The position numbers and the translations under genes are program-made. 64,000 nucleotides of DNA from an uncultured Pseudobdellovibrionaceae bacterium (GTDB lineage: Bacteria; Bdellovibrionota; Bdellovibrionia; Bdellovibrionales; UBA1609). The stretch's first letter is position 1; every line of letters starts with the position of its first letter. The notes beneath the pieces were generated by a model. It was not told where the DNA came from. It did not search any database and saw only the letters and a list, made by a program, of their open reading frames with translations. Of the stretch, positions 2,662-34,253 are shown in pieces. Location of the stretch: assembly GCA_964628445.1 (NCBI GenBank), contig CAZVOP010000001.1, forward strand, positions 27,355-91,354, in the 5' to 3' direction.

Positions 2662-3978
2662 ATGGCTAACAAAATTCAAAAACGCGTTCTTCCCTCTTAT
2701 GTTATCGACAATGTGCAAATTTGGACCGCCGAGCGCGGAGTGATTCCGAACTCACGTGTGTGGGTCGAGAACGGAAAGCTGAAGGCTTTTGGACCGGACG
2801 TGCAAGCCGAGGATGCGAAAATTAGAATCGACGGCGGCGGAAAAGTTTTGATGCCGGCTGGAGTGGATGCTCAGACCCATTTGCGCGTGCCGGGACAAAG
2901 CCACAAAGAAACGCCCGCGACCGGATTAACGGCGGCATTGAAGGGCGGATACTCCGCATTGCTCACGATGCCGAACACTCAGCCGACCATCGATTCGGTC
3001 GAGATCCTGAATAAAGGCAAAGCCGAAGTGAAACCTTTCGAGGACGATTTCGGTGTGCAAGTTTTTTGGTCGGCGGCGATCACTAAAAAATTAAATTCCG
3101 ACGAATGGACGGACTATCGTGAACTCGTCGACCAAGGGGTTCGTGCTTTTACCAATGACGGTTTAGGAGTCGCTTCCGATGAAGTGATGGATGAAGCGTT
3201 TAAGCGTTTGGAAAGTTTAAACGTTCCGCTACTCCAGCACGCGGAATTTTTGGGCCACGGCGGAAGTCTTGCGCCCGGACCCGTGCAAGAAAAAGTCGGC
3301 GCTTCGCCATACCCAAGCGAGCCGGAATGGAAGATGGTCGAGCGCGATATTCGTGAATTAAAAAAACATCCGCGCGCAAAGTATCATGTTTTGCATGTTT
3401 CCAGCCGTCACACTCTGGATTTTGTAAAACGCGCGCGCGCCGAGAAGTTGCAAGTCAGCGCCGAAGTGACGCCTCATCATTTGTTTTTCAATACCGAAAC
3501 GATTGATCCCGACAATATGGCTTTTAAAATGAATCCGCCGATCCGCGGACCAGAAGATCAAAAAGCGTTGTGGCAAGCTCTAGGGGACGGGACTTTGAAT
3601 TTCGTCGCGACCGATCATGCGCCACATGAAAATTTGATGAAGAACGGTTCATTCGACAAAGTCGCGTTCGGCACTTTGGGCTTAGAGACCACTATTCCTG
3701 TTTTGATATGGGGAATGCAGCAAGGTTATTTGGACGAAAAGCGGTTTGTGGAGGTCTTTGCGACGAAGCCCGCGGAATTTTTGAATTTGCCCGCCGGTTA
3801 CGGAAAATTCATGATCGATCAGCCTTTCCATGCAGTATGGGTGGATATCGGCCATCCGGCGGAGACCTATAAGCAAGCAGACATTGCCAGCCTTTCTAAA
3901 AATAGCTGCTTTGTCGGAGCTCAGTTACCTGGTAAAATTTTGGGAGCATTCCACGAGCAGCGCGCATTTACATTTTAG
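2662..3978 (+). CDS. pyrC: Dihydroorotase-like amidohydrolase (type I PyrC family)
   Basis: Motifs PAGVDAQTHLRVPGQ, MPNTQP, RAFTNDG, HVLHVSS and ATDHAPH are collinear with type I dihydroorotases. The first His of the HxH metal motif is Gln. Confidence 0.7.
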   Translation: MANKIQKRVLPSYVIDNVQIWTAERGVIPNSRVWVENGKLKAFGPDVQAEDAKIRIDGGGKVLMPAGVDAQTHLRVPGQSHKETPATGLTAALKGGYSALLTMPNTQPTIDSVEILNKGKAEVKPFEDDFGVQVFWSAAITKKLNSDEWTDYRELVDQGVRAFTNDGLGVASDEVMDEAFKRLESLNVPLLQHAEFLGHGGSLAPGPVQEKVGASPYPSEPEWKMVERDIRELKKHPRAKYHVLHVSSRHTLDFVKRARAEKLQVSAEVTPHHLFFNTETIDPDNMAFKMNPPIRGPEDQKALWQALGDGTLNFVATDHAPHENLMKNGSFDKVAFGTLGLETTIPVLIWGMQQGYLDEKRFVEVFATKPAEFLNLPAGYGKFMIDQPFHAVWVDIGHPAETYKQADIASLSKNSCFVGAQLPGKILGAFHEQRAFTF

Positions 3979-3992
3979 TTAGGAGCCGCCCA

Positions 3993-25822: not shown

Positions 25823-25938
25823 TCCCGTTCCTCCCGGTGGATTGAGGCCGTATCATCCCTGGTGGCCGCCGATTTCTCAAGCGCCCGATCGATGGGAATT
25901 CGCGTCACGCATTCAGATCTGTTATATTGGGCGAGTTT

Positions 25939-27033
25939 ATGAAGGAATTCCGCAAGAACATCACCGGACGCGGCACAAACGGCAACACCGTCAATCGCTT
26001 TGATTCTCAACATCTCGTGCTGGAACCCTTCGACGGCGAAGAATACCAGGAGGGTGAAAAGCCATTGCTGCGCACGGAATTTTTGCGTGATGCTTCAAAA
26101 TCCATCGTCAGCGAAAATGACAGCCCGGATATTCCATTTACCTATTCCATCAACCCTTACCGCGGATGCGAGCATGGCTGTGCTTATTGTTATGCGCGAC
26201 CGACGCATGAATATCTTGGTCATTCGGCGGGTCTTGATTTTGAGTCGAAGATTTACGTCAAACAGGAAGCCGCGAAGCTTTTGCGCGATAAATTGATGTC
26301 GCGTTCGTGGAAGGGCGAGCAAATCACGATTAGCGGCAATACCGATTGTTATCAGCCGATCGAGCGGCGTCTCCAAATCACGCGCGGATGCCTTGAGGTT
26401 ATGCGGCAATTTCGCAATCCCGTCAGCATGATCACCAAGAACGCGCTCATCACTCGCGATCTGGACATCTTGAGTGAGATGGCCAAGTGGGACGGTGCCA
26501 TGATTTTTATTTCAGTGACCACGCTCGACAATGATTTGTGCGCAGTTTTGGAGCCGCGCACTTCGCGTCCGCAAGCGCGACTGGCGGCGATTCGCCAACT
26601 GACGGACGCCGGGATTCCAGTCGGCGTGAACGTCGCGCCGGTGATTCCTGGACTGACCGATCATGAGATGCCTTCGATTATGAAGGCTGCAGCGGAAGCC
26701 GGGGCCGTCATGGCTGGATACACGGCCGTTCGCTTGCCGCTTGCGGTAACACCCTTGTTCACCGCTTGGCTTGAGGAGCATCGCCCTTTGCGTAAGCAGA
26801 AGGTGCTCGAAAATATCCGCAATATGCGCGAGGGTAAAACCAACGACGCCCATTTCGGCTCGCGTATGCGCGGTAAGGGCGCCATCGCTGAAAACATGCG
26901 TCAGATGTTTCAGATTTCCTTACGTAAAAACGGCCTCAATAAGAAAAGGATTGAGCTGGACTCCTCTCACTTCCGCCGGCCAGGAGATCAGCTTGATTTG
27001 CTCGATCTTCTGGATGACAAAGGAGACCTATGA
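25939..27033 (+). CDS. Radical SAM protein (SplB/COG1533-like, PA0069-type)
   Basis: CEHGCAYCYA (CxxxCxxC). N-terminal GRGTNGNTVNRF. ATG at 25939 preferred over the upstream TTG at 25927. Confidence 0.65.
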   Translation: MKEFRKNITGRGTNGNTVNRFDSQHLVLEPFDGEEYQEGEKPLLRTEFLRDASKSIVSENDSPDIPFTYSINPYRGCEHGCAYCYARPTHEYLGHSAGLDFESKIYVKQEAAKLLRDKLMSRSWKGEQITISGNTDCYQPIERRLQITRGCLEVMRQFRNPVSMITKNALITRDLDILSEMAKWDGAMIFISVTTLDNDLCAVLEPRTSRPQARLAAIRQLTDAGIPVGVNVAPVIPGLTDHEMPSIMKAAAEAGAVMAGYTAVRLPLAVTPLFTAWLEEHRPLRKQKVLENIRNMREGKTNDAHFGSRMRGKGAIAENMRQMFQISLRKNGLNKKRIELDSSHFRRPGDQLDLLDLLDDKGDL

Positions 27034-27977
27034 AAAAATCAATTCTCGTCTTGGTGTTGTTAATGCCCTCTCTCTCTTTCGCTTGGGGCCGCCGTGGTCA
27101 CCAAACGGTCGGTGAAGCCGCGGCCCAGCTCGCGAGCGAAGATCCCAGCGCGCCGTTTTTGAAATCGCGCAGCTATGATTTCGGCTACTACGCCAATGTT
27201 CCGGATTTCATTTGGAAGAAGCCCGCGACTTATGCTTTTGAAAAGCCGCAGCACTTTATGGATATGGAAATTTATGAGCGTGAGTTCAAAAAGCATCCGG
27301 AGATCAAAGATCCCTTCTCGCTCTCGCGTAAGGAATTCGAAGCCGCCTTTCCGCAGATTAAAGATAACGCCGGTCGCGCCTTTTGGCGCATCCGTGAGTT
27401 GAATGATCAGTTGAGTTCGTACACCAAAAGATTACGTGAATTGCCGGTGAAAGACGAAACCAAGGCGGAGCGCCGTTTGCTTCAAGAGAACTGGTTTCTT
27501 ACCGCGGGCGTAATGGCTCACTATTTCGGCGATCTTGCGCAACCGTTGCACGTCAGCGAAAATTATGACGGCGAATTGACCGGGCAAAAGGGCATTCACG
27601 GTTATTTCGAAGACGATATGGTCGACGAACTCTATCCGCAAGTTCGGGTGAGCGTGCAAAAGCAGGCGGCGAAGCTGTGGCCGGAATTTAAAAAGAGAAA
27701 TGCGAATAAGTCCGTGCTGGATATTTTGAAAGAGCTGGCCGTTAAATCGAACAAGAGAATTAATCCTCTCTTGGCCATTGATAAAAAGGAAAACCGCGAA
27801 GCTCGAGCGAAGAATGCTAAAACTTACGAAAAAATGATCGTCGATTGCTTAACGGATGGAAGCTTGGCCCTGGCCGAAATTTACCGCCGCCAGTTGGGCT
27901 GGAAGTATGACGGCCATCGTTTCTTCTTTTTCGCGGGCGAGCCGGCGTACATGATGCCGGGTGAGCCGTCAAAATAG
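27030..27977 (+). CDS. Secreted S1/P1-type zinc nuclease
   Basis: Signal peptide ending ...SFA directly before WGRRGHQTVGEAAA (N-terminal Trp Zn ligand of P1 nuclease). AHYFGDLAQPLHV. ATGA overlap with the radical SAM gene. Confidence 0.6.
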   Translation: MKKSILVLVLLMPSLSFAWGRRGHQTVGEAAAQLASEDPSAPFLKSRSYDFGYYANVPDFIWKKPATYAFEKPQHFMDMEIYEREFKKHPEIKDPFSLSRKEFEAAFPQIKDNAGRAFWRIRELNDQLSSYTKRLRELPVKDETKAERRLLQENWFLTAGVMAHYFGDLAQPLHVSENYDGELTGQKGIHGYFEDDMVDELYPQVRVSVQKQAAKLWPEFKKRNANKSVLDILKELAVKSNKRINPLLAIDKKENREARAKNAKTYEKMIVDCLTDGSLALAEIYRRQLGWKYDGHRFFFFAGEPAYMMPGEPSK

Positions 27978-28019: not shown

Positions 28020-28277
28020 TTAGATTTTCTCTAGAAATTGCAGTATCGGCACGCTTCCGCGCAAGATTTGCTGACCCACGATCAACACCGGTGTCTCAAC
28101 GGCGCCAATCAAAGCTCGCAGTTTCCCTTGCGCGCCTTCATACGCGATATTCAAAAATTGAATGTGCTCGGTCAGCTGATGCTCAACCAAATACTTGCGC
28201 ACCCGCGCGCTGTCTTCGCCGCCGCTACCGATCTGATGAAAGAGAATCCATTTTTCTGCGGACATATTTAAAGCCAT
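28020..28277 (-). CDS. Small glutaredoxin/GST-N-like thioredoxin-fold protein lacking a CxxC
   Basis: 85 aa. WILFHQIGSGG...ETPVLIV pattern resembles a Grx fold with Ser in place of Cys. Low confidence. Confidence 0.35.
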   Translation of the reverse strand: MALNMSAEKWILFHQIGSGGEDSARVRKYLVEHQLTEHIQFLNIAYEGAQGKLRALIGAVETPVLIVGQQILRGSVPILQFLEKI

Positions 28278-28344: not shown

Positions 28345-28382
28345 AACTAAGTTCTTAGTTGCAATCAACTAAGAACTTAGTT
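28345..28382. promoter_or_regulatory. Two tandem 16-bp palindromes (candidate BlaI-family operators)
   Basis: AACTAAG-TT-CTTAGTT (28345-28360) and AACTAAG-AA-CTTAGTT (28367-28382), centres 22 bp apart, 28 nt upstream of the blaI-like ATG. Together they also form a 15-bp perfect inverted repeat (28347-28361 / 28366-28380). Confidence 0.5.
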
Positions 28383-28409
28383 ACTGTAGTTTTAAGCGGA
28401 GGTTCGCCC

Positions 28410-28802
28410 ATGAAGAAGAAAACGAATGAGCAGAAGCTGCTCACGGAAGTTGAGCTCGAGTTTATGAATGTGATTTGGGCTTTGGGCGAAGCTTCCGTCG
28501 CGGAGGTGATCGAAAATCTTCCTGAAGATCGCAAAGTCGCTTACACCTCGGTCTCGACGATCTTAAGAATCTTGCAGCAAAAGAATGTGCTGAGCGCGCG
28601 CAAAGAAGGGCGGGGTCATGTTTACATTCCGTTGCTGCAGAAGTCGGACTACGAGTCGCGGTCGGTTTTACATATGGTGGATAAAGTTTTTGACGGCACC
28701 CCTCTGGCTTTGGTGAAGCAGCTGTTGGGGTCAGTGAAAATGAAACCCGAAGAGCTGTCGGAATTGAAAGACATGCTGGCGCAATTGGAGAAGAGGAAAT
28801 GA
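28410..28802 (+). CDS. BlaI/MecI/CopY-family transcriptional repressor
   Basis: Winged-helix N-terminus LTEVELEFMNVIWALGEASVAEVIENLP...YTSVSTILRILQQK and a C-terminal dimerisation helix. GGAGG RBS before ATG 28410. Confidence 0.8.
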   Translation: MKKKTNEQKLLTEVELEFMNVIWALGEASVAEVIENLPEDRKVAYTSVSTILRILQQKNVLSARKEGRGHVYIPLLQKSDYESRSVLHMVDKVFDGTPLALVKQLLGSVKMKPEELSELKDMLAQLEKRK

Positions 28803-30376
28803 TCACATCTTTTTTTAGCGCTTATTTGAGCTTAAATGTGGTGATTGCGGCGGCGGTGATGGCTTTATTTTTGATTGCGCCGTGGATAGGAAAGCTCAAT
28901 GCGTCCGCGCAGCTGAAACTGCACTACGCGATTCTAGGTTTTGTGATGGTGTCGCCGTTGTTGCTTTCGATTTACAGGCCTCCGAGTCTTTTTCGGCCGG
29001 TGATGAAAGTGTGGAATTCTTCGCCTTCGGCAGTGGCTAGCGTAACGGCGAATTCACGCGGTGTTTTGGTTTTATCCGACCATGTTTCGGTGAGCGCGGA
29101 TTATCTGTTTTTGTTTGTTATTGGGTTGTGTTTGGGCTCGTTGCTTTTTGGTTTGTGCTATGTGGCTTACGGGCAATGGCAAGTGCGTCAGATTTTGCGC
29201 GCGAGCTTTCTTTATAAGCGCATTCGCTTCGCGAATGTGTTGATCAGTGAAGAATGCCTGATCCCGTTTTCATACCGGGGTTTGTGCAAGGCTTACGTGG
29301 TGCTGCCTTCTTATTTATTAAATCAGCCGGAAAATTTTAAAATGTCGGTCGCGCACGAGCTGCAGCATCACCGGCAGGGCGATACGGCATGGGCTTACGC
29401 CCGCCTGCTTTTGGGCGCCGTATGTTTTTTGAATCCTCTTATTTATTTTTGGAATCGATGGATCGATGAAGTTCAAGAATTTGCCTGCGATGAGAAATTG
29501 GTTGGCCGCCAAGATCTCGTGGCGCGGGCCTATGCCCGCTGTCTGATTCAGGTGGCGGAAACGGCTTGGGTTCAGGCGAAAGTTCCGGTCGGCGCAACCG
29601 GGATGATTCTTTTGAGCCGAGGCCAACTACTTAACAGGAGAATAAAGTCTATGTTCGAGGCAAAGAAAATTCAGGGAAGATTTGTTTGGCTTGCGCCATT
29701 CATGCTGGTCGCGGCGGTTGTCACTTCGGCCGCTTTCGCGGCTAAGGGAATGGTGCAGGATCGCCGCATCACCATGGCGCAAGCCCAATCCTTTGTGCAA
29801 ACGAGCGCCAGGGACTCGGAAATCCCGCTGCGCGTGAATGAGGAGGTGCTTGTCTGGTTGAACTATTACGTGGGCACTCCGGCGGGACGACTACAAATGA
29901 AAGAAGCGCTACGCAGGATGGAGGCATATCGCTCGATGATCGGCGATAAGATCTTGGCTTACCATGTGCCCTCGGAACTCATAGCGATCCCGCTCATCGA
30001 ATCGGGTTATCAAAATCTTCCCGAGAGCAATAAAGCGGGCGTCGGCGCCGGATTATGGATGTTCATCGCGAGCACCGCGCGTCACTTCGGATTGAAAGTC
30101 GATAAGGCGCAAGATCAGCGTTTGCATGAAGAAAAAGAAACCGAAGCCGCGATGAGATATTTGCTCGGCAACAAACTCCGTTTCGACGATTGGGAGCTCT
30201 CGATCATTGCCTACAACGCCGGCGAAGCTTTTGTGCAAAAAGAGATCGACCGTTTAGGAACACGTGACGCTTGGGAATTGCTCAGCAAGGGCGGCTTCCG
30301 CCGCGAGACGCGTGAATATTTGCCAAAGCTGAATGCCGCCATATTAATTATGAAGAGCCCTTCGCTGATCGAATAG
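28799..30376 (+). CDS. BlaR1-like M56 membrane metalloprotease fused to a C-terminal MltD-like lytic transglycosylase (SLT) domain
   Basis: Four N-terminal TM segments. HEXXH (VAHELQHHRQGD). A further TM (FVWLAPFMLVAAVVTSAAF). Then IPLIESGYQN...GAGLWMFIASTARHFGL...IIAYNAGE...ETREYLPKLNAA (SLT/MltD motifs). ATGA overlap with the blaI-like gene. Confidence 0.75.
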   Translation: MITSFFSAYLSLNVVIAAAVMALFLIAPWIGKLNASAQLKLHYAILGFVMVSPLLLSIYRPPSLFRPVMKVWNSSPSAVASVTANSRGVLVLSDHVSVSADYLFLFVIGLCLGSLLFGLCYVAYGQWQVRQILRASFLYKRIRFANVLISEECLIPFSYRGLCKAYVVLPSYLLNQPENFKMSVAHELQHHRQGDTAWAYARLLLGAVCFLNPLIYFWNRWIDEVQEFACDEKLVGRQDLVARAYARCLIQVAETAWVQAKVPVGATGMILLSRGQLLNRRIKSMFEAKKIQGRFVWLAPFMLVAAVVTSAAFAAKGMVQDRRITMAQAQSFVQTSARDSEIPLRVNEEVLVWLNYYVGTPAGRLQMKEALRRMEAYRSMIGDKILAYHVPSELIAIPLIESGYQNLPESNKAGVGAGLWMFIASTARHFGLKVDKAQDQRLHEEKETEAAMRYLLGNKLRFDDWELSIIAYNAGEAFVQKEIDRLGTRDAWELLSKGGFRRETREYLPKLNAAILIMKSPSLIE

Positions 30377-30394: not shown

Positions 30395-30427
30395 GCGGGA
30401 GTTCTCTTGGACTCCCGCTTTTTATTT
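30395..30427 (+). terminator. Rho-independent terminator
   Basis: GCGGGAGT-ttctcttgg-ACTCCCGC followed by TTTTTATTT, 19 nt after the blaR1-like stop. Confidence 0.75.
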
Positions 30428-30441
30428 GTTATCCATGCCTA

Positions 30442-30801
30442 ATGACTATTCATCCTGACTCTTGGATTGGTTGGCTGCTTTACTGGATTGTTTCGGGCGC
30501 GGCACTCGCGATCACCGCCGGGATCGTTCCGGGTTTTCGCTTGAAGAGTTTCAAGTCGGCGCTTGTGGCTTCGTTGGTTATCGGTTTAGCCAATATTTTT
30601 ATTCGGCCGGTGCTGATTCTCCTTACGTTTCCTCTGACAATACTGACTTTAGGCCTGTTTATTTTTGTGGTGGATGCGATTGTTTTGCGCTTAAGCGCGG
30701 CGATGCTCGAGGATTTCGAGATCAGCAACTGGTTCTCGGCAATCATCGGCGCGGTGATCTTGGCGATCATGTCGAGCGTCTTGCATCTCCTCATCATTTA
30801 G
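30442..30801 (+). CDS. Small membrane protein, phage holin 4_2 / DUF360 (YvlD-like) family
   Basis: 119 aa with 3-4 TM helices. GIVPGFRL...ALVASLVIGLANIFIRPVLILLTFPLTILTLGLF, typical of this family. Confidence 0.6.
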   Translation: MTIHPDSWIGWLLYWIVSGAALAITAGIVPGFRLKSFKSALVASLVIGLANIFIRPVLILLTFPLTILTLGLFIFVVDAIVLRLSAAMLEDFEISNWFSAIIGAVILAIMSSVLHLLII

Positions 30802-30814
30802 TTAGACTTAAAGC

Positions 30815-32155
30815 ATGAATAAGCTAAAAGCGGTCCTGCGTAACCCGAACCTCCTGGTCGTGTTTTTAATGGGATTCTCGTCAGGACTTCCGCTGGTTCT
30901 GATCGGCGGAACGCTGAAAGCCTGGATGAGGGAATCCAATGTCGATCTTAAAACGATCGGCTTCTTCTCGGTCGTCTCGCTGCCTTACACCTGGAAATTT
31001 ATTTGGTCGCCGCTGATGGACCGTTACGTGCTGCCGCTGGGCCGGCGGCGTGGTTGGTTGATCGTTTCGCAAATTGGTTTGTTCGCATCGATATTGGGTC
31101 TTTCGACCGCCGATCCGGCCACGCAAACCGCGATGCTCGGCGTATGGGCTTTTATTGTGGCGTTCTTCGCCGCCAGCCAAGACATCGTGGTCGATGCTTA
31201 CCGCCGCGAAATTTTGCCCGATGAGCAACTCGGTCTTGGCTCGTCATTTTATGTTTTTGCTTACCGCTTAGCGATGTTGCTGGCGGGTGCGGGGGCCTTT
31301 TCGTTTTCGAAGCGCATTCCGTGGAGCGAAGTCTACATCATCATGGCATTCTTCATGGTGGTGGGGGTGATCACGACATTACTCTCCAAAGAACCCAAGA
31401 CCGAGGTGCCGCCGCCGAAAACTTTAAAAGAATCGGTGATCGGGCCGCTGAAAGAATTCTTTACGCGCGATTCGGCGATATTGATCTTAATTTTCGTTTT
31501 GCTCTACAAGCTCGGCGAGTCGATGGCCAGCGACATGTTCAATCCGCTCTACATCGATTTGCGCATCGATAAAGACGCGGTCGCCGGCGTCTCCAAATTT
31601 TTCGGCTTTTGGGCGATGGTCGGTGGCGGAATGGTCGGCGGTTTTGTGATCATTCAGCTGCGCCTTTATCGTTCGCTCTGGATATTCGGGATTTTGCAGG
31701 CCGTTGGTCTGCTCGCTTTTTCGGCATTGGCTCATTATGGGCGCATCTTGGTCGAAGCGAATGCCGCTTTATTTTTGAGCGACCCCAAAGCCACGATTCC
31801 AACGGCGGATATTCTTCCCATTCTGGCCACGGCGGTGGGAGTGGAAAATTTCACGAGTGGTATGGCGACGGCCGCTTTCGTGGCTTTCATGGCAATCCAA
31901 ACCAATAAGCGCTTCACCGCGACTCAATATGCTTTGCTCACCAGCTTGATGCAGGTGCCGCGTACGGTCTTCGGCATGTCGATGGGGATTTTGGCGGAAA
32001 GCTTGGGCTGGGAATGGTACTTCGCGGCCTGCGCGCTTTTTGCCATTCCCGGGCTAATCACGCTGTTCTGGATTAAAAAGTTATTGCATGAGCCTGAGGC
32101 ACCGTCCAGCCGCAAGCCATCTTCCACGCAAACAGCGGCTGCGGCTCAGTCTTAA
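30815..32155 (+). CDS. ampG: AmpG-family muropeptide MFS permease
   Basis: FLMGFSSGLPLVLIGGTLKAWM...FFSVVSLPYTWKFIWSPLMDRY. Multiple hydrophobic (TM) segments along its length. Confidence 0.8.
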   Translation: MNKLKAVLRNPNLLVVFLMGFSSGLPLVLIGGTLKAWMRESNVDLKTIGFFSVVSLPYTWKFIWSPLMDRYVLPLGRRRGWLIVSQIGLFASILGLSTADPATQTAMLGVWAFIVAFFAASQDIVVDAYRREILPDEQLGLGSSFYVFAYRLAMLLAGAGAFSFSKRIPWSEVYIIMAFFMVVGVITTLLSKEPKTEVPPPKTLKESVIGPLKEFFTRDSAILILIFVLLYKLGESMASDMFNPLYIDLRIDKDAVAGVSKFFGFWAMVGGGMVGGFVIIQLRLYRSLWIFGILQAVGLLAFSALAHYGRILVEANAALFLSDPKATIPTADILPILATAVGVENFTSGMATAAFVAFMAIQTNKRFTATQYALLTSLMQVPRTVFGMSMGILAESLGWEWYFAACALFAIPGLITLFWIKKLLHEPEAPSSRKPSSTQTAAAAQS

Positions 32156-32553
32156 TCCCAATTCTTCTTGCGCAGCTTCTTAATTTCGCCGCGATGTGAT
32201 TTCGCATCGATGCGTTTTCTGACCGACGATTTCGTCGGTTTAGTCGCCTTGCGTTTCTTCGGCACAAACAAAGCTTTGCTGACTAAGTCGGCCAATTTCT
32301 CCAGACAGCGGGTTTTGTTGCGCTCTAGATCGCGGAACTCATCGGCACGAAATTGGATGTAGCCGTCATTGGTCATCAATGGTGCCAGCCGAACGCGCAG
32401 CCGGGCTTTTTGCTCGGGCGTAAAAAGCAGCGAGTGCTCCAGGTCCCAATTTACCTGCGCGGCTGAGGAGACCTTGTTGACGTTTTGTCCACCAGGCCCG
32501 CGGCTGCGCACGGCTTTAAAAATAACTTCGCGGCGAAAATATTCGGGTGCCAC
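32152..32553 (-). CDS. arfB: Alternative ribosome-rescue factor ArfB (peptidyl-tRNA hydrolase, YaeJ family)
   Basis: GPGGQNVNKVSSA (GGQ motif) and a basic C-terminal tail. Confidence 0.85.
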   Translation of the reverse strand: MAPEYFRREVIFKAVRSRGPGGQNVNKVSSAAQVNWDLEHSLLFTPEQKARLRVRLAPLMTNDGYIQFRADEFRDLERNKTRCLEKLADLVSKALFVPKKRKATKPTKSSVRKRIDAKSHRGEIKKLRKKNWD

Positions 32554-32558
32554 GGCGT

Positions 32559-34253
32559 TTAACTTCGAACCATCATTTCTTGGATCTTACTGAGCAAATC
32601 GCGCGTCGAGAAGGGTTTACTCAAAAACATCGTCGATTCCAGGTTGATTCCATGACGGACAAGTTCATCCGAGGAATAGCCCGAGAGAAAAAGAACTTTC
32701 GGCTCCAAGCCTTCCCGTTTGAGCTCCTCGACGAACGCGGGCCCCGTTTTTTCCGGCATGATGACGTCGGCGATAATCATGGATATCTTCTTGGGATGGC
32801 TTTTCATGATCGCGCAGGCCTCGTTGCCATTGCGGGCTTCGAGCACCTCGAAGCCCTTACGGCGCAAAAACGAGGCGGTGATCGTGCGCAACTCATCCTC
32901 ATCTTCCACGAAAAGTAAGGTCTGCGTTGAGAGCTGCGCGACCACTGGGCTGGGGGCCGCGTGAGTACTGGCTTCCTCTTCGCACGCGGGAATGTAAATG
33001 TGGAATTGCGAGCCTTCGCCGAGCTCGGATTTGACTTCGATTTCGCCGCCCGCTTGTTTGACGATACCGAACACCGTGGGCAGCCCGAGTCCCGTCCCTT
33101 TGCCGACTTCCTTAGTGGTGAAGAACGGTTCGAAAATATGCGCTTTGGTTTTTTCGTCCATGCCTGTGCCGGTATCAGCCACGGTGATGCGCAGAAAAGA
33201 GCCGCCCCGGCCCGCCGCGAACTCACTCCGCCCGGCGCTCACCGTCAGCGTGCCCCCGAAGGGCATTGCATCGCGCGCGTTGACCACAAGATTCATGAGG
33301 ATTTGTTCCATATGCGTTTGATCCGCGCGCACGTTCGGGATGTCTTGGGTCAAGTCCATCTCCAGGCGAATGTTTTCGCTCAGCAGGCGCCTGAACAGCT
33401 GTTTCATGTCGCTCAATAAAAGTTTGGTGTCGAGCACGCACGAATCCATCACTTGGTTGCGACTGAAGGCCAAGAGTTGCTTGGTCAGACGCGTGGCCTT
33501 TTCGGCGGCACTTTGAATACTGACGATGCATTCCCTAAGATTTTCGTCTTTCAGGTCCTCGAGAAGGAATTCGACGTTGAGATGGATCAAACTCAGAATG
33601 TTATTGAAGTCATGCGCAATGCCCCCGGCCAGTTGCCCGATGGCCTCCATCTTTTGTGCTTGGCGCAGTTGCTGCTCGAGCTGCTTGAGATTCGTCAAAT
33701 CAAGCGTGAAACACAAGATGTCTTGATCGTTTGAGAGCCTCGTGCCGCCGATCATGACCGGCACACGGCCCCCGCTCTTGCGCAGAAATTCTTTTTCGAA
33801 TGTCGGGCAGATACCCGTCGTACGCAACGCTTCCATCCCGCGTTTGTTCACATCCCAATATTCGAGCGGCACGCCGGTGGTCCAATTCACTTTTCCGTTT
33901 TTAATATCTTCTTTGGTGTAGCCGATGATTTTCAAGAAAGCCGCGTTGGCCTCGGAGATCCTGCCTTCAAGGTTGACGATAAAGAGGCCCAATAAATCCG
34001 AATCCATCAACCGGTCCACGCGCCCTTCGCTTACCGCCAGCCTTTCACTGGTCAGCAATTCCTGGGTGACGTCGCGGTACATAAAGCCGATGAAGTCGAC
34101 TTCTTGTTTTTCATTCAGAATGGGAAAGGCCGTGCAGTCCATGCCCAGGCGGAGGCTTGGGCCGACTTGAATATTGCCGGCACTTGGCGCGTCGAACCAC
34201 AGAGAAGGAATCGTCGCCATTTTTCCGGCTAACGCTTCCCTAAAACCATCCAT
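32559..34253 (-). CDS. Hybrid sensor histidine kinase (PAS-PAS-HisKA-HATPase-receiver); true N-terminus probably upstream of 34253
   Basis: H-box [12 protein letters not shown]. Motifs DTGTGMD and GTGLGL. C-terminal receiver (LLFVEDEDE...IADVIMP). Coordinates run from the first ATG, but the PAS-coding frame stays open to 34499. Confidence 0.8.

Follow-up and report, generated by a model that had tools for sequence, protein, structure and literature searches.

The blaI and M56-SLT gene pair

A stretch of DNA 64 000 nucleotides long from an uncultured Pseudobdellovibrionaceae bacterium (assembly GCA_964628445.1, contig CAZVOP010000001.1, positions 27 355–91 354 of the forward strand), referred to here as the window, carries a gene for a winged-helix repressor of the BlaI/MecI family (blaI; 28410..28802, 130 residues) followed by a gene for a 525-residue fusion of an M56-family membrane protease with a lytic transglycosylase (LT) of the SLT type (28799..30376). 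Coordinates are those of the window and features lie on its forward strand unless stated otherwise. The stop codon of blaI (TGA, 28800–28802) shares bases with the start codon of the M56-SLT gene (ATG, 28799), giving an ATGA overlap. The original prediction for this locus had described the second product as a BlaR1-type transducer, translationally coupled to a BlaI repressor, in which the penicillin sensor is replaced by an MltD-like LT domain. The open reading frame (ORF) is present as claimed, and translation recovers all of the motifs that had been named (HELQHHRQGD, PLIESGYQN...GAGLWMF, AYNAGE and ETREYLPKL). Both domain assignments hold up in Pfam, where Peptidase_M56 matches residues 146–269 (E = 3e-17, 63.2 bits against a gathering cut-off of 31) and SLT matches residues 389–493 (E = 8e-16, 58 bits against a cut-off of 21.3); no transpeptidase or penicillin-binding protein family is matched, and the predicted C-terminal fold is MltD-like, in agreement with the claimed absence of a penicillin-binding sensor.

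By word-indexed search 603 relatives were retrieved; each of the best 120 combines M56 and SLT domains, at 39–64% identity to the window protein. The named sources among these 120 are metagenome-assembled genomes (MAGs) of Bdellovibrionales, Pseudobdellovibrionaceae and Oligoflexia, relatives of predatory bacteria, and some relatives of the window protein carry the NCBI name "M56 and MltD domain-containing protein". In an exhaustive profile search, full-length matches below 1e-130 came from at least 150 clusters (50% identity), and the species-representative genomes contain at least 208 loci with a relative; the best 80 of these loci are all from MAGs, mainly of Bdellovibrionota, and the closest relative among them is 52% identical. 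Residue conservation was counted over 118 full-length homologues of the same architecture, to which the frequencies given below refer. The survey of the fusion that had been suggested with the original prediction thus yielded these 118 proteins and at least 150 end-to-end clusters, which rules out a chance event or an assembly artefact. A blaI gene lies directly upstream on the same strand in 70 of the 71 loci with room for an upstream gene. Whether the pairing is invariable had been asked at the outset: it holds in all but one locus (L030, 3503–5546), in which an M56-SLT gene lacking its first ∼40 codons adjoins an unrelated EamA-like transporter gene; a rearrangement or a chimeric contig is the probable cause. 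When all flanking ORFs were clustered, no further neighbour proved to be conserved.

The repressor matches Penicillinase_R (Pfam, E = 4e-30) and aligns end to end with the Staphylococcus aureus BlaI and MecI structures. Its start is most likely to be ATG 28410 and not TTG 28359, because a ribosome-binding site (GGAGG, 28398–28402) precedes the former and the structure alignment runs end to end from that codon. The orthologues in the 70 paired loci are 45–76% identical, and the region aligned to the cleavage site of S. aureus BlaI (N101-F102) reads ALVKQ-LL and is conserved in all 70. The best NCBIfam match of the repressor is CopY/TcrY (2e-16), as might be expected if the pair were a CopY-type module for copper or another metal. 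This match reaches 60 bits against a cut-off of 122, however, and the protein contains no cysteine, so that the CxCx4CxC metal site is absent; a CopY-type metal repressor was rejected. Against a canonical β-lactam sensor with a cryptic binding site, neither a transpeptidase nor a class D β-lactamase-like or SxxK-type match is found, and the C-terminal fold matches MltD. We regard a metal-responsive or β-lactam-sensing module of either kind as very improbable.

Hydropathy analysis of the M56-SLT protein indicates four transmembrane (TM) helices: TM1 (residues 12–30), TM2 (residues 41–59) and TM3 (residues 104–122), which together with the periplasmic loop EL1 between TM2 and TM3 (residues 60–103) occupy 28832..29164, and TM4 (residues 295–313, 29681..29740 including the AxA motif at its end). 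The protease domain between TM3 and TM4 (residues 123–290, 29165..29668; defined by Pfam, conservation and Foldseek) is of the gluzincin type and contains a re-entrant hairpin (residues 197–217) just after the HEXXH motif. Across the 118 homologues, lysine and arginine residues together average 0.03 at the N-terminus, 4.2 in the 15 residues past TM3 and 4.9 in the 15 residues ahead of TM4; by the positive-inside rule, the low N-terminal charge and the Lys/Arg-rich flanks of the protease point to an N-out, protease-in, C-out protein with the topology of BlaR1 (PMC9834060). The arrangement of four TM helices plus a re-entrant hairpin, N-out/C-out, with a cytoplasmic protease site and a periplasmic LT domain, is a prediction only; hydropathy, charge bias and predicted fold concur in placing the LT domain in the periplasm, where the original prediction had put it, and none of them places it in the cytoplasm.

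An AlphaFold2 model built from 31 homologues has a mean pLDDT of 82.6, with low-confidence stretches at residues 75–86 (part of EL1) and 403–415. Foldseek matches the N-terminal part of the model to the cryo-EM structures of S. aureus BlaR1 (8exp and 8exr) and the C-terminal part to Pseudomonas aeruginosa MltD (8rhf; r.m.s.d. of 2.3 Å over 188 columns, 31% identity). Residue roles in BlaR1 were taken from the cryo-EM paper (PMC9834060). The zinc-site motifs HEXXHxxxxD (HELQHHRQGD, 29354–29383) and EXXXD (29477–29491) supply His186, Glu187, His190, Asp195, Glu227 and Asp231, which correspond to His201, Glu202, His205, Asp210, Glu242 and Asp246 of BlaR1, while Tyr245 and the pair Arg280-Arg281 correspond to Tyr261 and Arg293-Arg294. 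Each of these residues is present in 117–118 of the homologues, so that the BlaR1 protease machinery called in the original prediction appears to be intact. A conserved segment resembling the autocleavage loop (residues 263–272, P263-x-C-A266-T-G268-L-x-F/L271-L272) places a hydrophobic residue ten positions ahead of the Arg pair, a spacing equal to that from the autocleavage P1′ residue Phe284 to Arg294 in BlaR1; with Phe/Leu271 included, all BlaR1 counterparts are 97–100% conserved. EL1 carries the motif F65-x-P67-x-x-K70-x-W72 (Trp72 in 118, Pro67 in 114, Phe65 in 110 and Lys70 in 105 homologues), and an invariant Trp within a conserved motif is as expected if the loop signals.

TM4 ends on its periplasmic side in A312-F-A314 (29732–29740), an AxA motif in which Ala312 is found in 105 homologues (Ser or Thr otherwise) and Ala314 in 117. 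By analogy with the BlaR1 sensor (PMC9834060), this could be a signal peptidase I site at which the LT domain is shed. The juxtamembrane linker that follows (residues 314–342, 29738..29824) averages 28.9 residues between TM4 and the LT fold over the 118 homologues and is helical in part in the model. It includes Asp321-Arg322-Arg323, invariant in the 31-sequence alignment and near-invariant in the larger set.

Residues 343–525 (29825..30373) form an LT domain of family 1D (MltD-like), as indicated by Pfam SLT, by the Foldseek match and by a sequence match to PDB entry 8rhe (3e-16), in which the domain aligns to residues 58–208. The NCBIfam MltD equivalog model matches residues 368–519 at model positions 95–245, with 67 bits against a cut-off of 508. 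The extra N-terminal helices of MltD-type enzymes, which extend the groove, are matched in the alignments to both this model and 8rhe. The catalytic residue, Glu401 (29999–30001), was identified by conservation and by alignment with MltD and lies within the motif PLIESGYQN...GAGLWMF (29990–30064). Glu144, Thr167, Tyr195, Tyr214, Asn215 and Tyr249 of MltD, with their described roles (PMC11327851), correspond to Glu401, Thr426, Tyr454, Tyr472, Asn473 and Tyr507, and the low-confidence residues 403–415 are the counterpart of the mobile clamping loop located after the catalytic Glu of that enzyme. Glu401, Trp420, Phe422, Thr426 and Tyr507 are found in all 118 homologues, Asn473 in 117, Ser402 in 115, Tyr472 in 113 and Tyr454 in 109; the MltD-equivalent LT residues are thus 92–100% conserved. 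Because the catalytic Glu is invariant, LT activity appears to be under selection. Pfam detects no LysM domain, the protein ending at residue 525 directly after the catalytic domain, and no N-terminal lipobox was found; the LT domain sits behind TM4 of an inner-membrane protein.

Position 421, which follows Gly-Leu-Trp (residues 419–422, 30053–30064), is Met in 52 homologues (44%) and Gln in 66, and the surrounding residues define two groove subtypes, G-[WV]-G-A-G-L-W-M-F (52 sequences, including the window protein) and x-K-A-A-G-L-W-Q-F (66 sequences). In MltD the residue after GLW makes a water-mediated contact at subsite −1 (PMC11327851), and the two subtypes may reflect different ligand or activity states. 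By mutual information, position 421 covaries only with the neighbouring clamping-loop positions 414–416, and its values against EL1 are at background level. One reading of the Gln-to-Met change, of a clamping-loop region that is longer than that of MltD and poorly defined in the model, and of the missing LysM is that the LT domain is a non-catalytic pseudo-enzyme serving as a receptor for soluble muropeptides or prey-derived wall fragments. The universal catalytic Glu and the near-universal Ser402 would be unusual in a pseudo-enzyme, however; only the adjacent loop sets the Met and Gln subtypes apart, and the inner-membrane tether makes the domain face the cell's own periplasm. We consider a pseudo-enzyme receptor improbable.

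Operator and promoter of the pair

Two perfect 16 bp palindromes, AACTAAGTTCTTAGTT (dyad 1, 28345..28360) and AACTAAGAACTTAGTT (dyad 2, 28367..28382), lie within the 132 bp region upstream of blaI at a distance of 22 bp from one to the other. Nearly all of 72 related loci have the same arrangement ahead of blaI, AACTAA-N4-TTAGTT twice with a 6 bp gap, and in 857 kb of sequence (the window plus related loci) the exact dyad is confined to blaI promoters. The inferred σ70-type promoter (28359..28387) has a −35 element TTGCAA (28359–28364), a 17 bp spacer and a −10 element TACTGT (28382–28387), and 51 loci share the consensus TTGaTA (G in 51/51), 17 bp, TAnTnT (T in 51/51, A in 38/51 and T in 40/51). 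In this consensus the −35 element begins inside dyad 1, dyad 2 fills the spacer and the −10 element begins at the last base of dyad 2, as is also the case in the window, where dyad 1 overlaps the −35 element and dyad 2 occupies the spacer and touches the −10 element. A generic σ70 scan gave no promoter in the blaI upstream region, so the assignment is made from conservation across loci only. Since the dyads cover the −35 element, spacer and −10 element, binding of the repressor would occlude the promoter core. The comparative evidence for autoregulation of the blaI operon is strong, and the conserved double-dyad operator at its promoter is new in this analysis. A strong intrinsic terminator (30395..30428), with a 10 bp stem that contains seven GC pairs and then TTTTTATTTG, closes the two-gene operon; among terminator-like sites in the scanned region it ranks first.

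A scan of the window for the dyad with up to two mismatches gave two weak, non-palindromic matches, which is chance level. In metagenomes, the double dyad was found at 120 loci (∼0.69 Mb), 97 of which adjoin a BlaI homologue; the remaining 23 are at contig ends or are AT-rich, Bacteroidota-like loci of a different system.

Seven of the AT-rich loci (L084, L099, L115, L118, L137, L145 and L171), probably on Bacteroidota contigs, have AACTAA-N4-TTAGTT(N6)AACTAA-N4-TTAGTT between divergent genes for a secreted TPR protein of ∼385 residues and a 96-residue protein, with no detectable BlaI homologue adjoining the double dyad. A BlaI-family repressor of another phylum may have a distal target in these loci. 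A further locus, L187, contains two inverted copies of the operator (85–122 and 3950–3987) with fragments of blaI and of the M56-SLT gene and is probably a palindromic assembly artefact.

Proposed signalling mechanism

In BlaR1, EL1 fills the ligand groove of the sensor and is displaced by the ligand; helix 3 relays the movement to the protease, and once the autoinhibitory loop has moved out of the active site BlaI can be cut (PMC9834060). Because all of the corresponding parts are conserved in the M56-SLT protein, the same logic is plausible here with a glycan strand as the competing ligand. We consider the chances to be slightly better than even that the pair is an autoregulated BlaI/BlaR-type proteolytic switch which takes its input from glycan strands through a catalytically competent MltD-like LT domain. 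A dimer of the BlaI-like repressor would bind the two AACTAA-N4-TTAGTT dyads across the −35 element, spacer and −10 element of its own operon promoter, while the M56 protein would cross the inner membrane four times, N-out/C-out, with its zinc protease site in the cytoplasm. A linker of about 29 residues would hold the LT domain at the outer face of the inner membrane, and the domain probably falls short of the mature sacculus; given so short a linker, it should meet nascent, uncross-linked or soluble glycan strands and not the sacculus. Being tethered to the inner membrane, it would also face the cell's own periplasm and not the walls of prey. A strand in the LT groove may then signal through TM4 and the EL1–TM3 unit, as in BlaR1, perhaps by displacing the EL1 loop, whereupon the protease site would be released from the autoinhibitory loop. 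Cleavage of the repressor in its ALVKQ-LL region would derepress the operon and possibly unlinked targets too.

Of this scheme, the analysis shows the domains, the predicted topology, two conserved active sites, a BlaI partner that is obligate and an operator conserved over the promoter. The ligand, the mechanism of EL1, the site of repressor cleavage and the activity of the LT domain we infer. As the operon is the only detected operator target, the LT domain would be at least one output of the circuit; with the catalytic Glu invariant and the only detected operator controlling the operon itself, the domain is likely to be output as well as input. A role in sensing is plausible, resting on the conservation of the whole BlaR1 signalling apparatus and of the operator.

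Several observations count against a glycan-sensing switch with a competent enzyme as its input. An invariant catalytic Glu suits an enzyme no less than it does a sensor, and Met at the position of the Gln in GLWQ leaves the activity of the Met subtype, to which the window protein belongs, unproven. The protein lacks the LysM domain that in family 1D packs against the catalytic domain. The cleavage dipeptide of S. aureus BlaI, N-F, aligns with Q-L in this repressor. No target beyond the operon was found in the window, in the 857 kb or in the 120 metagenome loci (together ∼1.5 Mb), single-dyad sites elsewhere in the genomes being unsearched, and literature searches found no experiment on any member of the M56-SLT family.

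Some of the same observations would fit an LT domain that is purely an effector, that is, an inducible LT that is anchored in the inner membrane or released by signal peptidase, with the M56 part sensing a membrane or cytoplasmic cue or merely anchoring and maturing the enzyme and BlaI setting only the level of expression. Invariance of Glu401 and of the substrate-binding residues, an operon that is the sole detected target of its own operator, an AxA motif at the periplasmic end of TM4 that could free a soluble LT and an ampG gene downstream in the closest relatives (see below) are all compatible with such a role. Conservation of the EL1 motif, autoinhibitory loop, Arg pair and gluzincin site equals that of the enzyme, however, and in every BlaR studied the domain after TM4 is the input; a mere anchor, moreover, would need neither an intact protease nor a BlaI partner that is obligate in 70 of 71 loci. 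A purely effector role therefore seems unlikely to us, if less so than a pseudo-enzyme.

The switch and the enzyme might also be joined in a single detect-and-degrade circuit, a possibility that we advance tentatively. Here the LT domain would be both receptor and effector: engagement or turnover of a strand in the LT groove would displace EL1 and so switch on the cytoplasmic protease, the BlaI-like repressor would be destroyed and more LT would be made. The trigger would be a build-up of uncross-linked or nascent strands at the inner membrane, as when transpeptidation fails.

Surrounding genes and relation to known systems

Downstream of the terminator lie genes for a small four-TM membrane protein of family PF04020 (Phage_holin_4_2, Pfam; 30442–30801) and for the muropeptide permease AmpG (30815–32155; TIGR00901, 1e-141). 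AmpG imports anhydro-muropeptides made by LTs. Both genes are context and not conserved parts of the module: the terminator separates them from the M56-SLT gene, no operator lies upstream of them, and the order is common only to the two closest loci (L001 and L011). As these two loci share the upstream genes as well, the linkage is plain synteny, and PF04020 and ampG were rejected as parts of the system. In the window, a radical SAM gene (25927–27033) overlaps by 4 nt a gene for a secreted S1/P1-nuclease-like protein (27030–27977), a pair that is syntenic in L001 and L011. Divergent from the operator region is an 85-residue ORF (28020–28277, reverse strand) resembling glutaredoxin/GST_N but without CxxC, its Pfam matches being below the cut-offs; no such ORF was found beside the module in other loci. 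On the other side, a gene for a 133-residue RF-1-domain protein (ArfB-like peptidyl-tRNA hydrolase; 32152–32553, reverse strand) converges on the end of ampG with a 4 nt overlap and is preceded by a gene for a hybrid PAS histidine kinase with a receiver domain (32559–34253, reverse strand).

Compared with BlaR1/BlaI and MecR1/MecI of S. aureus and Bacillus licheniformis, the M56-SLT system has the same gene pair in one operon, the input domain after TM4, four TM helices plus a re-entrant hairpin in an N-out/C-out topology and a conserved extracellular loop between TM2 and TM3. It also shares the gluzincin site (HEXXH...EXXXD), the auxiliary Asp, Tyr and Arg-Arg residues, and the autoinhibitory loop with a hydrophobic P1′ residue ten positions ahead of the Arg pair. 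As for BlaI and MecI, the repressor is predicted, here from conservation, to act on two dyads over its own promoter. The input is an MltD-like LT domain, whereas that of BlaR1 and MecR1 is a class D β-lactamase-like penicillin-binding domain; the repressor gene comes first in the operon and there is no divergent resistance gene of the blaZ or mecA type. The half-sites of BlaI/MecI operators are of the TACA/TGTA type, in contrast to AACTAA here. The host is a Gram-negative (diderm) member of the Bdellovibrionota, and the NCBIfam blaR1_generic model matches residues 160–322 with 38 bits against an equivalog cut-off of 400.

The catalytic fold, including the extra N-terminal helices, is shared with P. 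aeruginosa MltD (8RHE, 8RHF and 8RHI; PMC11327851), as are the Glu-Ser pair, the GLW(Q)F, AYNxG and ExxxYxPK motifs and a flexible clamping loop past the catalytic Glu. Unlike MltD, the fusion has no lipoprotein signal and no outer-membrane anchor, being tethered to the inner membrane through its M56 domain; it has no LysM domains, although packing of LysM1 on the catalytic domain is a hallmark of the MltD subfamily (PMC11327851), and it has Met for Gln after GLW in the window protein and in 44% of the family. As the penicillin sensor that defines BlaR and the lipoprotein anchor and LysM of MltD are all absent, the fusion is neither a BlaR1 nor an MltD orthologue, but a BlaIR-family system with a new input domain. 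Among other LTs, MltG is anchored in the inner membrane, where it is placed to meet nascent glycan strands, and Slt70 degrades the uncross-linked strands that build up when transpeptidation is blocked. They differ in fold family (that of MltG is YceG-like), and neither is coupled to a protease or a repressor.

Noncanonical BlaIR systems are the majority (PMC13492132). Those described include CenIR of Clostridioides difficile, whose targets are cell-envelope genes, one of them for a peptidoglycan hydrolase (PMC13492132), PvmSR of P. aeruginosa (10.64898/2026.08.03.742534), mycobacterial BlaIR and cyanobacterial PetRP (10.1101/2020.07.31.226407). Their extracytoplasmic domains are short, disordered or absent, whereas that of the M56-SLT protein is a large folded enzyme, which provides a concrete hypothesis for the ligand. 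The M56-MltD architecture is already named in NCBI annotation, and other fusions of M56 with wall hydrolases have been catalogued: an InterPro survey lists M56-M23 and M56-Amidase_3, but not SLT, among the architectures with at least 100 entries (PMC13492132), and another paper mentions M56-M23 fusions of no known function (PMC9662197). Our literature searches found no paper on an M56-SLT protein.

Only ∼6% of M56 proteins carry a penicillin sensor (PMC13492132); most BlaR-like proteins lack one, and their signals are unknown. The M56-SLT family is among the few in which the input domain is a recognizable enzyme with a known substrate, so that the signal can be guessed and directly tested, and the module thus offers an unusually testable hypothesis for a noncanonical BlaR signal. 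The 16 bp dyad, in turn, can at once be used to define the regulon wherever a complete genome contains the module. A detect-and-degrade circuit, if true, would be the first receptor to turn glycan binding or turnover by an enzyme domain into gene expression via transmembrane proteolysis, and would give one Gram-negative lineage an indirect sensor of wall damage or β-lactam action that is independent of AmpR and AmpG. If the proposed switch is correct, it would reveal how the condition of a bacterium's own glycan strands is read through the inner membrane, and the BlaR1 mechanism would then reach beyond the sensing of antibiotics to surveillance of the cell wall.

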